A program made the translations under genes and the position numbers. Below, in pieces: positions 967 to 6,476 of a DNA stretch of 64,000 nt. The DNA lies in assembly GCA_963776275.1 (NCBI GenBank), contig CAVZMI010000015.1:1-64000 (forward strand). Reading direction: 5' to 3'. Every line of letters starts with the position of its first letter. Position 1 is the first letter of the stretch. Source of the DNA: Ignavibacteriota bacterium. Its GTDB lineage: Bacteria > Bacteroidota > Ignavibacteria > UBA10030 > CAVZMI01. The notes below the pieces were generated by a model. The model saw nothing but the letters and a program-made list of their open reading frames with translations, made no database searches and had not been told where the DNA came from.

Positions 967-3843
967 ATGTTAACCCCAGAACAACAATCCGCCATCAATC
1001 ATGTAAACGGTCCATTGCTCGTAATCGCAGGGCCGGGCGCAGGGAAGACCCGTGTCATTGTTGAAAAATGCGTGTATCTCATCAATGAAACAGGTAAAAA
1101 GCCGGAAAACCTTCTCGTCACCACGTTCACTAACAAGGCGCGGGACGAGCTGTATGACCGGCTTTACGTCAAGCTTGGAAATGACGCGCAGAAGATCACC
1201 ATTTCGACCATACATTCATTCTGCCAGACGCTGTTGACAGCGTACCCCGCACAGAACCCTCTCGGCGCACATTTCGAGGTCCTTGACGGTGAAGAACAAT
1301 TTCTGCTCGTATACGACAATCTGAAGCAACTGGGTCTTGCGGCATTTCCCAAAAAAAGGGTCGCGGATTTCATCCATTCCATTATTACCACATTCAATCT
1401 CTGTACTGAAGAGTGCGTCGACCCGGACCGGTTCATTGAGGAGGCAAAAAAGAACGGCAAGGAGCTTCTCGGCCTGAAAGCGACCACAGACGATGCAATT
1501 GAGGAATATTGTGCAGTGACCGAAGCGTATAAGAAATATAAAAAGTTGCTGTTTGACGAGCGGCTTGTGGATTTCCCGACCCTGCAGGAGACCGCCTATA
1601 AAATGGTCAAGGGGAAAGCGGAAGTCAGAAAAGAGCTAGCGGCAAAATATCATTATATTCTCATCGACGAGTATCAGGATACCAACCGTTTGCAGGTCCT
1701 GATATTCAAGGAAATTGCCGAACCCGAATATAATCTATGTGCGGTCGGCGACGACGATCAATCAATCTACCGGTTCAGGGGAGCGAACGTAAAAAGTTTC
1801 CTGAACTTTAAAAATGACTTTCCGAAGGCCAAAGAGATAACTTTGACGGCCAATTTCCGTTCCACACCAATCATCGTTGAAGCTACATCCAGCCTCATTG
1901 AGAAGAACGTACCGGAGCACAAGACGAAAGAATTAATATCTTATCGTAAGTGTTGTTCAGTCGCCCCGGTAAATTTTCACGAGCCTACTGCTCCAGAAGA
2001 AGCAGCGGCCATCGTAAGTGCACTTGATATCTGGAAGAAGAAAAAAATCATAAAATCATGGAATGAAGTCGCAATCCTTTTACGGAGCGTTAAAAGCTAT
2101 TCAGAGCCTTATATTACCGAATTGAAGAAATGGAAAATACCGTTTATGGCTTTCGGGGAAGGAGCATTTTTTGAACGTGAAGATATCAGCGGAATACGCG
2201 ATCTTCTACTGTTTTGCGGTTATAAGAATAAATGCCCGGTTAGCGGAATCCGGCCGCCCTTATTTGAAATCAGCAGGAAAACTTTAAAAATCCTTGAAGA
2301 GTGGAAAGACGATCCCGTATCTTGGTCAAAAGCTGATACGCTGGAAGCGCTCCATATTCCGAAAAATGATCGAGTTGTTCTCAATCAGCTCAGCCATCTC
2401 CGGCAGCGCAGCCTTGACGGAGAATACCGGCACTATCTTCTGGGGCTTTTTTACGACATGTTGGATATTTCTGGGTATTTCCGGAGAGTATTAAAAGAGT
2501 ATGTCGAACAACAAAATGAATATGCCGATGCCGCACTATATAATCTATCCGTGTTTTCAAATCTTATCGGCCAGTTTCAGAAAAGAGTACGCAGCGGCAG
2601 TCTTTATAAACTGAACGAATATTTTTACTTCATTCAAGATAAGGTTGTCGATGCTATTGCAGTCGAGCCATGCGGAGAAGCGGTCCGGATAATGACCGTG
2701 CATCAGGCAAAGGGGCTGGAATTCCCGGTTGTGGTCATCGGTGGGGCAATGGAAAAACGATTTCCTTCAGGTTTCAGAACCCCAAAATATCCAGTGCCTG
2801 CAGAATTAAAAATTTCAAAGAATAGGGATGATGAGGAAATCCATATAAGGGACGAACGCCGGTTGTTCTACGTAGGTATGACCCGCGCCGAAGATATTCT
2901 TTTTATCGGTTCTGCTGACAAGGTAAATGTTAGAGGTAGTGGCCCCTCCCGGTTTATTGAAGAAATTAAAAAAGACAAAATAATTCAGTCGGTAAAAGAT
3001 ATAAAGGATCGGCCGTGTAGGGATGAAGAAAAGACCAGGGCGCCGGAACGGAAAAGGATTTCGTATTCAGGCCTTCATACTTATCTTTTGTGTCCCCTGC
3101 AATATAAACTGATTTACGAATGTGATTTTGCTGTGCCGCAGGTCTACTGGGCCTATTTCGGCGGGGCCGTACATAGCCTCCTTGAGCATATCCATAAGAA
3201 GGCGTTAGAAGGGCATATTCTCCAAACCAAGGAATTGCCCGAGCTATGGAAGACAATGTGGAAACCGCCGGAAAGCTGGGATGAAAAGCGGAGAGATACT
3301 ATGGGTAAGACCGGACTTGCGTATCTCGAAAGGTATGTTTCCAATTATGCGGAACGCCTCAAACGCGTATACTGGGTTGAGCAACAAATTGAAATACCGA
3401 TAATGGAAACAAACCTTCTTCTTACCGGCCGGCTGGATTTAGCGTGTAAGAGTGACGGAGGTATCGAGATTATTGATTTCAAAATCCGCAAGCGCACCGG
3501 CCTTGAGGTCATGCGCGAGGGGTTGCAGGTGCAGATTTACGCTCTTGCGGCCGCAACGATACGGATGGAAAACGTAAATGGCGTTACCCTGCACCTTCTG
3601 GGCGAAGATAGAGGTAATGAGATTCAGAAATATCCATGGAATGATTCGGTAAAAGAAAGTGTCCAAAAGACGATACAGTTGGCAGGCGAAGGCATTACAA
3701 AAAGGAAATTTGATGCACAGCCCGGCATCCACTGCCGGTTCTGTGATTTCCGTTCGCTCTGCCCGTTTTCAATAGCACCGGCAAAAAAAGAGGAGCTTGA
3801 CGATGAAATCGCTCTTGGTACTGAAGCTCAAAAGGTCGGTTGA
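967..3843 (+). CDS. UvrD/REP SF1A helicase fused to C-terminal PD-(D/E)XK nuclease with 4-Cys Fe-S motif (AdnB/AddB-like)
   Basis: AGPGAGKT Walker A, IDEYQD, VGDDDQSIYRFRGA, NFRS, TVHQAKGLEF, RRLFYVGMTRA; nuclease GRLD...IIDFK, QxxxY, CPLQY and HCRFCDFRSLCP. Confidence 0.9.
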   Translation: MLTPEQQSAINHVNGPLLVIAGPGAGKTRVIVEKCVYLINETGKKPENLLVTTFTNKARDELYDRLYVKLGNDAQKITISTIHSFCQTLLTAYPAQNPLGAHFEVLDGEEQFLLVYDNLKQLGLAAFPKKRVADFIHSIITTFNLCTEECVDPDRFIEEAKKNGKELLGLKATTDDAIEEYCAVTEAYKKYKKLLFDERLVDFPTLQETAYKMVKGKAEVRKELAAKYHYILIDEYQDTNRLQVLIFKEIAEPEYNLCAVGDDDQSIYRFRGANVKSFLNFKNDFPKAKEITLTANFRSTPIIVEATSSLIEKNVPEHKTKELISYRKCCSVAPVNFHEPTAPEEAAAIVSALDIWKKKKIIKSWNEVAILLRSVKSYSEPYITELKKWKIPFMAFGEGAFFEREDISGIRDLLLFCGYKNKCPVSGIRPPLFEISRKTLKILEEWKDDPVSWSKADTLEALHIPKNDRVVLNQLSHLRQRSLDGEYRHYLLGLFYDMLDISGYFRRVLKEYVEQQNEYADAALYNLSVFSNLIGQFQKRVRSGSLYKLNEYFYFIQDKVVDAIAVEPCGEAVRIMTVHQAKGLEFPVVVIGGAMEKRFPSGFRTPKYPVPAELKISKNRDDEEIHIRDERRLFYVGMTRAEDILFIGSADKVNVRGSGPSRFIEEIKKDKIIQSVKDIKDRPCRDEEKTRAPERKRISYSGLHTYLLCPLQYKLIYECDFAVPQVYWAYFGGAVHSLLEHIHKKALEGHILQTKELPELWKTMWKPPESWDEKRRDTMGKTGLAYLERYVSNYAERLKRVYWVEQQIEIPIMETNLLLTGRLDLACKSDGGIEIIDFKIRKRTGLEVMREGLQVQIYALAAATIRMENVNGVTLHLLGEDRGNEIQKYPWNDSVKESVQKTIQLAGEGITKRKFDAQPGIHCRFCDFRSLCPFSIAPAKKEELDDEIALGTEAQKVG

Positions 3844-4594
3844 CAGGTTTTTTAGGCGTCCGGCAGTGGACGCCGCCGTGATGGTCGTTATTCTCCTGAG
3901 CGTAATACTTATACTCATCGAGTTTTATCACGCTCTTGATGAGCAGAAACTACGGCACGTAATGCTGGCGAACGATATCATCATGGGTATTTTCATCGTG
4001 GAATTGTCCTTGCGCTGGTTTGCGGCGCCCTCCACGAAGGCACATTGGAGGGAATACTGGATAGACTGGATCAGCGTTGTGCCGGTTTTCCGGCCAGTGC
4101 GGATACTGCGGTTTCTCAGAGCACTAAGGCTCCTGCGAATTTTCAGATTTGGTTTTCTTGTGCACCGTTTCGCGCGCACATTCGAGCCGCGCCAGTATGC
4201 CAGCGCGCTACGGGAAGATGTCGCGCATTATGCCGGCCCGCATGCGGAATTCATTCTTCTTATGCCGCAATTATTTGATATGCTGTCCAATCTTCTGGAT
4301 GACGGTCGGGTTTCAAAAGAGGCCCGACAAAAGATTTGTCAGGCAATGGCGTATTTTATCACCCCTTTCGACGTGCTGCCTGAAGAGGTTTATGGAGTAG
4401 AGGGATACGTCGACCAGTGTTACGTGGTTTTATATGTATTGAAAGAACTTCAAACCCTGCTCCCGGATTTTGTCCTTAAGGAGGCGTGGGAAGGGGAGGG
4501 AACGTTCAAGGAGATCATTTCGATGTTACCGAGTCTGGAAAAAGAGATGCTCATGGAGAACATTCAGAAGATACAACGTTATTTGGGGTTATAG
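3803..4594 (+). CDS. Voltage-sensor (S1-S4 ion-transport-like) domain fused to DUF1232/YkvA-like domain
   Basis: S2 IFIVELSLR, S3 WIDWISVVP, S4 RPVRILRFLRALRLLRIFR; C-terminal AYFITPFDVLPE...GYVD. ATG at 3803 follows an AGAGGAG RBS and overlaps the helicase 3' end. Confidence 0.75.
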   Translation: MKSLLVLKLKRSVDRFFRRPAVDAAVMVVILLSVILILIEFYHALDEQKLRHVMLANDIIMGIFIVELSLRWFAAPSTKAHWREYWIDWISVVPVFRPVRILRFLRALRLLRIFRFGFLVHRFARTFEPRQYASALREDVAHYAGPHAEFILLMPQLFDMLSNLLDDGRVSKEARQKICQAMAYFITPFDVLPEEVYGVEGYVDQCYVVLYVLKELQTLLPDFVLKEAWEGEGTFKEIISMLPSLEKEMLMENIQKIQRYLGL

Positions 4595-4769
4595 AAAAAC
4601 AGAATTCATTGGACCTATTAATATGGACAACTACTACGGCTGACATTCACCTTAGTTATTTAGCTGGCAAAAAAATCCTGCACCATTGCACATAATCTCT
4701 GAAAATTCTTTCTTTTTGAATTTTTTTCTTTTAGATTTCATCAATTCCCAAATCTACTCGAGGCGACCC

Positions 4770-6476
4770 ATGAAAAAAGATATCCCTCTCTATGATGTTC
4801 CACATATTGATACCATTCAGGATATGGTACTACAGTCTTCCCGGAAATACGAATACAAAATTGCTCTTGAAGATCTCAACACAACCCCGATCCATGAAGT
4901 GAGTTATCATACACTTCTTAAAAATATTTTGAAATTCGGAGTTTCACTTCAAAAACTCGGCATCAGGGAACGAAGTCATATTGCAGTTATCAGTGAAAAC
5001 CGGGTGCAATGGGGAATTACATATCTTACTGCAATGTGTTTTAATTATGTCATTGTGCCGATCGATAAAAATCTTGGGATCAATGAATGTTTAAACGTTA
5101 TCCATGAATCGGATTCCGTCGCTATTGTTTTTTCAGAGGCCTTTGAATCGATATTACGTGAACGCCGCTCGTCGTTAAAAAACATGAAACACTATATTAG
5201 CATGGATCTCGTATCGGAGACCGATGAGATTTATTCAATGACTGAACTGATTCAAAACAGTCCGGGATGTGAGATCGAAGACCTTCCACATATTGATCCC
5301 GACGCAATGTCTGTAATTATTTTTACCTCCGGAACACTCGGCCGTGCAAAGGGGGTGATGCTGTCGCAGAAAAATCTTGCCGCAAATTTAATGAGTATGG
5401 TAAGCATGTTCTTAATCGTGCCTGAAGACCGTTTTCTTTCCGTACTGCCAATCCACCATACGTACGAATGCACATGCGGATTTCTATGCCCACTATATGC
5501 CGGTGCATCTGTATCATATGCCCGGTCGCTCAAAACCGTTGTCGATGATCTCAAACAGGTGAAAGCTACCATACTGCTCGCCGTGCCGCTTCTATACGAT
5601 AAAATGTTCAAACGCATCTATAAAGCCATACAGGAGAGCCCGTTAAAGGCGGCAATCGTCCCACCGATGATCAAAGCCGGTAATATACTGGAGTCTTTCG
5701 GGTGGAAGGATTTCCGGAAACTGATTTTTAAAGAAATCCATCACAAATTCGGCGGCTCTATCCGGTGCTTTATTGCCGGTGGAGCAGCTCCCGACCCGCT
5801 GGTTGCAAAGGGTTTACGCGAGTTCGGATTCAATTTTATACAGGGATATGGACTGACCGAGACGGCACCGATCCTGACGCTTAACAGGCTAGGCAATTTC
5901 AAAGACGATGCTGCCGGACTTCCCCTTCCTCTTGTTCAGATTAGAATTAATAACCCTGATTCCGATGGCATTGGTGAAGTGTGGGCGAAATGACCGAACA
6001 TTATGTTGGGGTATTATAAAAATGAAGAAGCAACACAAGCGGCATTTGAAAATGACTGGTTCAAGACGGGCGACCTGGGTATATTTGATGAAGATGGCTT
6101 CCTGCACATTTGCGGTCGTAAGAAAAATGTCATCATCTCAAAAAGCGGTAAGAATGTATTCCCGGAAGAGATTGAGGATATTTTGAATCGGAGTCCGTAT
6201 ATCCTCGAGTCGCTCGTCTATGGCGAGAAGGACGAAAAGCATCTGGAAATTATCGCAGTGAAGATTGTCGTTGATGCCGAAGCATTTATCGAGCTGTCCG
6301 AATCCCGCAGTATCCCAATTACCCAAGAGCTGTTGAAAACAGTCGTCGGTCAGGAAGTTCAAAAAGTAAACAAAGAACTCCCGCCATATAAACAGATTAA
6401 AAAATATGGTATCCGCGATCAGGAATTCCAGAAAACAACAACACAGAAAATAAAACGACACCTCGCCCATGCATAG
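4770..6476 (+). pseudogene. Long-chain acyl-CoA synthetase (AMP-binding) interrupted by in-frame TGA at 5991-5993 (nonsense mutation or sequence error)
   Basis: FTSGTLGRAKG, QGYGLTET and WFKTGDLG motifs; WAK*PNIMLGYY where the family has (K/R)GPN.MxGYY; both halves in the same frame. Confidence 0.8.

Follow-up and report, generated by a model that had tools for sequence, protein, structure and literature searches.

The first 64,000 nucleotides of contig CAVZMI010000015.1 from an Ignavibacteriota bacterium (assembly GCA_963776275.1), hereafter the window, carry close to the contig end two overlapping genes that form the subject of this analysis. The first encodes a superfamily 1 (SF1) helicase joined to a nuclease, and the second a 263-aa protein (P0001) that is a member of both the voltage-sensor superfamily and DUF1232 (Table 1). 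The reading frames share 41 nt, and the junction shows no excess of promoter-like or terminator-like signals. The sensor gene is probably coupled in translation to the helicase-nuclease gene. As a GAGGAG motif lies 7 nt before the ATG at 3803, this start is preferred over a TTG at 3797, and because relatives (18 aligned) conserve its first 26 residues (the family alignment, 43-88% identity), it is also preferred over the start of a 237-aa gene call (P0002). Both halves of the sensor protein are under purifying selection, with ratios of non-synonymous to synonymous substitution (dN/dS) of 0.04-0.09 in pairwise comparisons with the loci L025 and L001, in which dS is saturated; for the sensor half alone the values are 0.07-0.09.

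Table 1. Features of the helicase-nuclease and sensor genes in the window
Feature	Position	Strand	Basis and remarks
Partner gene: 958-aa SF1 PcrA/UvrD-like helicase with C-terminal PD-(D/E)XK nuclease	967..3843	+	Pfam
Shine-Dalgarno-like GAGGAG	3790..3795	+	Read from sequence; 7 nt 5' of the ATG, within the 3' end of the helicase gene
Sensor gene: 263-aa voltage-sensor/DUF1232 protein (P0001)	3803..4594	+	ATG at 3803, TAG at 4592-4594, stop included
S0, basic N-terminal helix, residues 4-17, predicted cytoplasmic	3812..3853	+	AlphaFold2 helix
S1, residues 20-42	3860..3928	+	AlphaFold2 helix, Kyte-Doolittle maximum 3.0; S33, L36, E40 invariant
S2, residues 47-74	3941..4024	+	AlphaFold2 helix, aligned to Nav S2; F64, E67, R71, W72 invariant
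S3, residues 78-95	4034..4087	+	AlphaFold2 helix, family alignment; E84, W86, D88 invariant
S4 and cytoplasmic extension, residues 97-126	4091..4180	+	AlphaFold2 helix 100-126, Arg register
C-terminal domain (residues 129-263), all-helical, with stand-alone DUF1232 homologues of ~140 aa	4187..4591	+	Model and alignment
Pfam DUF1232 match, residues 181-210, AYFxxPxDxxPE...GxxGYxD	4343..4432	+	End of a helix, loop, start of the next helix

In the N-terminal half of the protein, residues 21-116 match the Pfam family Ion_trans (PF00520) with an E-value of 7.4e-11 and 42.2 bits against a cut-off of 25. The match covers positions 3-108 of the 241 in the profile, which correspond to the sensor half only. 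The S2 motif F64-x-x-E67-x-x-x-R71 and D88 of S3 are invariant in 18/18 aligned relatives, and F64, E67 and D88 align to the corresponding S2 and S3 positions of Nav channels. In voltage sensors, an S2 aromatic residue, an S2 acidic residue and the S3 aspartate together form the charge-transfer centre. S4 carries seven arginines, one at every third residue (97, 100, 103, 106, 109, 112 and 115), and two more follow at R122 and R125. Among the 18 relatives the number of S4 arginines ranges from five to nine, with insertions and deletions in multiples of three residues and the register kept, and in 17 of them the ladder runs without a gap at the conserved F64 position, a single ladder glycine being found in P0030 alone. 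From its sequence, S4 of the sensor protein is predicted to move with voltage. S3 is unusually short and terminates in P94-x-F, followed by R97-P98, and Nav sequences can be aligned here only with insertions of 4-15 residues in the S3-S4 loop. The basic helix ahead of S1 has a motif, RLKxxLDRFFRxP, that is conserved in the family and can be aligned in related six-transmembrane (6TM) channels with RCK domains as well.

Structure prediction gave a matching picture. The AlphaFold2 model, built on a 68-row alignment, has a mean predicted local distance difference test score (pLDDT) of 88.5 and contains S1-S4 as four antiparallel helices behind S0, with an all-helical domain (residues 129-261) after the S4 helix, from which it is separated by a two-residue break. 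In S1-S3 the pLDDT mostly reaches 87-94, and it drops to its lowest values, 56-73, across S4 and the linker (block means of 69, 69, 73 and 56 over residues 91-130). Foldseek searches with the whole model retrieved chains of voltage-gated channels, all of them weak (best E-value 0.015) and with SpSLC9C1 (8pcz_A) among them. Based on positive-inside reasoning from the basic residues, the N-terminus and the C-terminal domain are both predicted to be cytoplasmic.

What follows S4 is not a pore. A profile of the family matches 46 channel sequences in the PDB (Nav, NaChBac, NavMs and KvAP, with E-values down to 7.6e-9), and these matches are confined to profile positions 3-126, i.e. S0-S4, with none beyond. 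The highest Kyte-Doolittle mean over 19 residues past residue 125 is 1.22, so that no transmembrane segment is predicted there. A 6TM voltage-gated channel subunit was rejected as an identity for the protein on these grounds: the absence of an Ion_trans match past position 108 and of PDB matches past profile position 126, the lack of a hydrophobic span after S4 and the divergence from 6TM-RCK channels after S4. The original prediction, made from the DNA letters, had described an S1-S4 bundle with the S2 motif, the S3 aspartate and seven regularly spaced S4 arginines, fused to DUF1232 without S5, pore or S6, and each of these elements was recovered here.

Downstream of the sensor, DUF1232 (PF06803, a profile of 37 positions) matches with an E-value of 2.1e-6 and 27.8 bits against a cut-off of 23. 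Ion_trans and DUF1232 are the only Pfam families found in the protein at E-values up to 10, and by sequence its output domain is non-enzymatic. The Pfam match marks a small part of a larger unit, as residues 129-263 align end to end with 46 stand-alone DUF1232 members of ~134-187 aa at 27-47% identity. Across the 47 aligned C-domain sequences a tyrosine, an aspartate and a tryptophan are invariant and P, G, G, D and D nearly so, and the stand-alone proteins share with the C-domain the pattern AYFxxPxDxxPE...GxxGYxDD...W...YxGL. Folded alone with AlphaFold2, the domain reaches a pLDDT of 93.5 and a predicted template modelling score of 0.87. Of eight stand-alone relatives, six have Kyte-Doolittle maxima of 0.95-1.12 and two of 1.6-1.7; this subfamily thus scores as soluble by sequence and model, contrary to the label 'membrane protein YkvA' that its members carry at the source, a statement that extends to this subfamily only. 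The suggestion that a DUF1232 hairpin might act as a substitute pore is not supported, given the lack of a hydrophobic span (maximum 1.22), the predicted soluble bundle (pLDDT 93.5) and the soluble scores of its stand-alone homologues.

Searches for relatives of the C-domain beyond DUF1232 returned little. Foldseek found no credible solved fold relative in the PDB (best E-value 0.62; Cas7-AcrIF25, UpxZ and LemA are regarded as noise) and no viral one in BFVD (best E-value 1.2), and the sequence profile of the domain matched nothing among PDB sequences below an E-value of 0.16. In the ESM Atlas only DUF1232/YkvA clusters were retrieved, with scores of 0.76-0.77 that lie under the lead threshold. 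The chain 2yxy_A (GK0453), which a single-sequence search brought up at a sub-significant E-value of 0.077, was discarded as a relative, being recovered neither by profile nor by fold. In the literature within reach, DUF1232 came up in five papers, with one or two occurrences in each and none in a title or abstract.

The C-domain was also found in other protein contexts. P0129 (595 aa) combines the Zn-binding domain of MrfA (MZB) with a C-domain and SLFN_AlbA_2, P0089 (401 aa) a C-domain with AlbA_2, and L012:6957-8168 an HTH_3 domain with a C-domain. A fusion to a weak MarR-like match also occurs, and P0038 (298 aa) consists of two C-domains in tandem. These arrangements suggest that the C-domain serves broadly in regulation or interaction, as a module joined to domains that bind nucleic acids.

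The partner protein contains, according to Pfam, UvrD-helicase at residues 2-286 (E-value 9e-71), UvrD_C at 291-649 and PDDEXK_1 at 697-933 (E-value 1.3e-27), and its closest solved chain is PcrA (1pjr, E-value 1.1e-69). In NCBIfam it stays below every equivalog cut-off, with 313 bits for PcrA (cut-off 911), 168.6 for AddA (707.65), 150.3 for RecB (696.05) and 30.7 for Cas4 (65). The ATPase, helicase and nuclease motifs as well as four cysteines are invariant in 12 orthologues; with its four conserved cysteines, the nuclease is taken to be Cas4/AddB-like and putatively of the Fe-S type. A sister clade (P0196-P0206) comprises helicase-nucleases of ~980-997 aa that have the same domains plus AAA_30 and a nuclease 29-31% identical to that of the window.

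The association of the two genes is strict. In 16/16 loci that encode a relative with both sensor and C-domain, tblastn placed an orthologue of the helicase-nuclease directly upstream and on the same strand, at identities of 44-85% for the sensor protein and 35-73% for the helicase-nuclease. Even loci with no more than 100-260 nt of sequence ahead of the sensor gene show the pairing, and at the measured junctions the genes either overlap by 31-41 nt or are separated by 5 to ~21 nt. When all open reading frames (ORFs) of the window and 14 loci were compared with one another (a set that excludes the very short L028 and L038 and contains two nearly duplicate pairs, L001/L027 and L032/L033), the helicase and the sensor were the only two genes common to all of them (15/15), and neither a third conserved gene nor conserved flanks were found beside the pair. 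A search with the nuclease domain gave 12 clusters at 40% identity or more, followed by a gap down to 31% or less, and seven of these 12 clusters lie on contigs identical in size to sensor contigs (those of five sensor clusters and of L002 and L030). From this gap and the matching contigs, the two families appear to be co-extensive as far as seen. As far as we found, such an invariant genetic partner is unprecedented for a non-pore voltage-sensor protein. A predicted complex of helicase residues 288-958 with P0001 residues 118-263, run without the 1A/1B domains, the sensor and controls, scored 0.00 against a mark of 0.32 and was counted neither for nor against contact.

Two irregular forms were noted at the helicase gene. 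P0025, a protein of 387 aa from one contig, joins helicase residues 1 to ~236 in frame to the end of S4 and a whole C-domain; it lacks the helicase from the motif II region on, the nuclease and S0-S3, and is either a natural deletion or an assembly collapse. In L001 (2047-2151) and L027 (2147-2251), 35 codons of the helicase N-terminus recur ~700 nt 5' of the real helicase start, at 77% identity to residues 2-36 of the window protein, and look like a small duplicated fragment.

The pair is a patchy, accessory two-gene module. Of 401 genomes sampled across the phylum, that of the window itself is the only one to encode the sensor protein in full length, and six others carry stand-alone C-domain ORFs only. 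The best helicase matches in the remaining 400 genomes are generic UvrD/PcrA proteins of 28-33% identity. When one genome per species was scanned (185,579 in total), the full-length gene was detected in only two, labelled as a Fibrobacteres metagenome-assembled genome (MAG) and an 'Eubacteriales' MAG. The flanks of the pair are unrelated in every locus. In L002 (5639-6360, forward strand) a pair of NTP_transf_2 and HEPN genes (MNT-HEPN) lies directly 3' of the helicase and sensor genes and is followed by a protein kinase gene, and other neighbours of mobile or defence type include an integrase-like gene (L025), a large serine recombinase (L034), PRiA4_ORF3 (L037) and an Mrr-type endonuclease (L032). 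In the window the pair is flanked by genes of the housekeeping kind (acyl-CoA ligase, a PRK13663-family protein and gyrA). Among the sequencing data sets listed for positions 2900-4700, none was of RNA and three were of DNA, with shares of 0.06-0.28.

Sensor proteins of this type are rare but not confined to the window. A word-indexed protein search returned 34 clusters, of which 31 belong to the family (E-value 2e-40 or better); 23 clusters cover at least 93% of the query, and 18 carry both Pfam domains in precomputed annotation. As the architecture of sensor plus DUF1232 is common to ~30 clusters, which stem from independent assemblies and from two or more lineages with different labels, the fusion is neither a chimera nor a deletion junction, and the possibility that it might be peculiar to this assembly can be set aside. 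When 1.84 billion representatives were searched exhaustively, 909 matched at E-values up to 0.001, only four of them below 1e-30. Among the best 150 representatives, two have both domains, 51 only the sensor and 97 only the C-domain; at 50% clustering the fusion amounts to one or two clusters, which makes it rare, not unique to the assembly.

The sensor-only matches point to the origin of the sensor. Those of at least 461 aa are 6TM channels with RCK/TrkA_N domains, and the ORFs of 22 genomic loci that match the sensor only are, counted from the first start codon, 471-713 aa long, apart from one cut by a contig end. A further 22 sensor-only representatives among the best 150 are short (110-206 aa) and could be genuine or fragments. 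The sensor is 36-49% identical to those of 6TM-RCK channels of ~471-554 aa (typically ~477 aa). In a MAFFT alignment it is collinear with these channels from S0 through S4 to the sequence 'LRLFRxG', after which the channels enter S5 whereas the sensor family enters the soluble domain. From this collinearity and the divergence that follows it, the sensor evidently descends from this clade of 6TM-RCK cation or K+ channels, with the S4-S5 linker as the point of truncation. The ~477-aa channels (P0064, P0069 and P0076; L003-L024) also share the short 'P-x-x-R' turn between S3 and S4 and at least six RxxRxx repeats, but they proceed to S5, pore loop, S6 and RCK/TrkA_N where the window protein has its DUF1232-type domain. 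In six of eight aligned 6TM-RCK channels (P0064, P0069, P0076, P0100, P0111 and P0142) 'AGEP' or 'ASEP' is found where the K+ filter is presumed to be, and in P0083 it is not; if this motif sits at the filter position, the ion selectivity of the ~477-aa channels may be unusual.

Among known systems, voltage-sensing phosphatases (VSPs) are the closest analogue in working logic. These eukaryotic proteins (Ci-VSP/TPTE) consist of a pore-less S1-S4 bundle, a short basic linker and a PTEN-like phosphatase, so that a pore-less sensor leads to a cytoplasmic output in both cases. In the window protein, however, there is no catalytic Pfam match, and the enzyme is a separate, co-transcribed helicase-nuclease; an identity as a voltage-sensing phosphatase was rejected because Pfam finds no phosphatase domain after S4 at E-values up to 10. 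Hv1 and SLC9C1 likewise use a voltage sensor outside a tetrameric pore. Hv1 has three S4 arginines, an S1 aspartate for selectivity and a C-terminal coiled coil, whereas the protein described here has seven S4 arginines, Ser33 (the putative counterpart of D112 in Hv1) and Glu40 as invariant S1 residues and a helical C-domain of globular shape, and no Hv1 chain was present among its PDB sequence matches (47 at E-values up to 10, and 46 by profile). SLC9C1 has its sensor built into a large exchanger. Stand-alone YkvA/DUF1232 proteins resemble the C-terminal 135 residues, but none of the 97 representatives with only the C-domain carries a sensor.

For the partner, the helicase core matches GajB models of Gabija with E-values down to 7.6e-74, but here the helicase has its own nuclease, and Gabija was excluded for lack of a conserved GajA gene beside the pair. 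AddAB, RecBCD and AdnAB were excluded as well, the scores being below the equivalog cut-offs and a conserved gene for a second large subunit being absent. In contrast to AddAB, RecBCD and Gabija, the window encodes a single-chain helicase-nuclease that has no constant partner except the sensor protein. Zorya (ZorAB with ZorC/D) and Kiwa (KwaA/KwaB) are comparable in concept only, each combining an inner-membrane sensor derived from an ion channel with a cytoplasmic helicase or nuclease effector that targets DNA; the protein families are unrelated, and homology was neither found nor is claimed.

To our knowledge, eukaryotes alone are known to have voltage sensors with a non-pore output (VSP, Hv1, SLC9C1 and TMEM266). 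A literature search, with most subscription journals outside its reach, found no work linking DUF1232 with voltage or describing a bacterial non-pore sensor, and no earlier description of the architecture was found within the same reach. In passages of a 2025 review of sensor diversity, prokaryotes are mentioned for channels only (PMC13661669).

The explanation favoured here, tentatively and at somewhat less than an even chance, is a two-gene module in which membrane voltage, acting via the DUF1232-type domain, governs the helicase-nuclease, possibly in defence. In its favour are the canonical sensor, the output domain without a transmembrane segment, the strict pairing and matching extent of the two families, their patchy occurrence, the mobile or defence-type neighbours in some loci, the nucleic-acid-related fusion partners of C-domain relatives and the purifying selection on both halves. 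That membrane potential may control the DUF1232 domain had been proposed from the start, and this is kept as the most economical reading of a model in which the S4 helix runs into the domain, the voltage response itself being presumptive. Since the sensor gene is strictly paired with that of the helicase-nuclease, the likely output of the sensor changes. The first gene would provide a cytoplasmic PcrA/UvrD-like helicase with a Cas4-like PD-(D/E)XK nuclease, and the second an inner-membrane protein made of a channel-derived sensor and a cytoplasmic, helical DUF1232-type domain of ~135 aa. A change in membrane potential, with depolarisation at foreign DNA entry or membrane damage as the likeliest trigger, would shift the arginine-rich S4, and the continuous helix of S4 and linker would relay this movement to the DUF1232-type domain. 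The latter may then bind, release or activate the helicase-nuclease at the membrane, where DNA would be unwound and cut. We infer a contact of the C-domain with the helicase-nuclease, a direction of signalling and a role in defence. Restriction of invading DNA (phage or plasmid) would be the most likely biological role, and the pair would then be, in its logic, a voltage-gated equivalent of systems such as Zorya or Kiwa that combine a membrane sensor with a nuclease.

A more specific version of this scheme is considered unlikely. Phage genome injection is accompanied by depolarisation of the membrane. Perhaps the sensor reads this depolarisation, or one caused by membrane attack, and the DUF1232-type switch arms the helicase-nuclease at the site of entry, in which case the pair would be an immune module with voltage as the danger signal.

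Several points weigh against voltage control of a defence enzyme. Voltage sensing is deduced from the sequence of the protein, and contact between helicase-nuclease and sensor protein from synteny. Distant stand-alone C-domain genes have varied neighbours (MgtC, kinase-like, oxidoreductase, MFS and EamA) and no constant helicase, which rules out the C-domain as a dedicated helicase adaptor. In L036 (1134-1526, forward strand) a stand-alone C-domain ORF of 130 aa, 77% identical to that of the window, has neither sensor nor helicase beside it. As regards defence, no neighbour of mobile or defence type is present in the window or in L001, with the window beginning at a contig end that cuts the upstream context. 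PADLOC-DB 2.0.0, a library dating from 2023, contains 0 families matching P0001 at E-values up to 0.01, and the helicase matches only its generic UvrD-type models, GajB and DRT helicase. The viral contigs of IMG/VR contained no relative, and plasmids gave only one distant C-domain match of 27% identity.

Alternatively, information could flow in the reverse direction: the helicase-nuclease would sense foreign or damaged DNA and the pore-less sensor, set off via its DUF1232-type domain, would leak protons or cations, so that the membrane potential collapses with an outcome of the abortive-infection type. The pairing, the patchy distribution and the mobile-type neighbours fit this equally, membrane-disrupting effectors are common in defence systems, and Hv1 conducts through its sensor. 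The isolated Shaker voltage sensor is reported to conduct cations too, as a voltage-gated channel in its own right (PMC5092046). A simple leak effector, on the other hand, would not need the whole charge-transfer apparatus to be invariant, and neither Hv1 nor VSP chains are among the 47 and 46 PDB sequence matches. A full S4 ladder normally keeps a voltage sensor non-conducting, and the ladder is full in this family, with its five to nine arginines and, in 17/18 relatives, no gap at F64. Reverse flow is regarded as improbable.

Still less probable is a role of the pair as an accessory of repair, recombination or DNA uptake, with the sensor protein as a membrane tether that reports the proton-motive force or is a plain anchor. 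A helicase core that most resembles PcrA/UvrD and an end-processing nuclease of the AddB/Cas4 type would both suit such a role, as would the housekeeping flanks in the window and the absence of a PADLOC match for the sensor protein. A housekeeping function is nevertheless poorly compatible with an occurrence in 1/401 genomes of the phylum, with the lack of an orthologous helicase in the other 400 and with flanks that are unrelated in every locus. A plain anchor, moreover, would not keep F64, E67, D88 and the arginine ladder, nor a dN/dS of 0.07-0.09 in its sensor half.

The two genes might also be co-transcribed but act separately, the sensor protein being, for instance, an auxiliary or regulatory subunit of a channel or transporter or a voltage-regulated signalling protein. 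The many different neighbours and fusion partners of the C-domain family and the close stand-alone copy in L036 could be read in this way. We consider it very unlikely, as the pair is kept in 16/16 loci with tight spacing, down to identities of 44% (sensor) and 35% (helicase), while the other neighbours change, and as both families are about equally small and found on the same contigs. A functionless remnant of a decaying 6TM-RCK channel, or an assembly artefact, would agree with the clear derivation of the sensor from the channel clade and with the in-frame junction of P0025, which shows that deletions occur at the locus, but it is close to refuted by the ~30 intact clusters from independent assemblies, the dN/dS of 0.04-0.09 and the confident structure models.

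If voltage is indeed coupled to the helicase-nuclease, bacterial membrane potential would be linked directly to DNA processing or immunity, and if phage injection is the stimulus, the pair would be the first voltage-gated nucleic-acid enzyme system. It would likewise provide a first function for DUF1232 domains, as conformational relay or partner-binding modules, and with it a functional handle on this large family. For biophysics and the engineering of voltage-controlled enzymes, the pair would then represent a minimal combination of sensor and effector.

Two further observations concern the genes on either side of the pair. The acyl-CoA ligase gene downstream (4686-6476, forward strand) is split by an in-frame TGA (5991-5993) into ORFs at 4686-5993 and 6003-6476, both of which match models of long-chain-fatty-acid-CoA ligases; the split could reflect a pseudogene, a sequencing error or read-through. 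Upstream, at the start of the contig (34-918, forward strand), an ORF of 294 aa has a hydrophobic N-terminus, no NCBIfam match and a 'GGNSGSP' motif, which we take to resemble that of trypsin-like serine peptidases.

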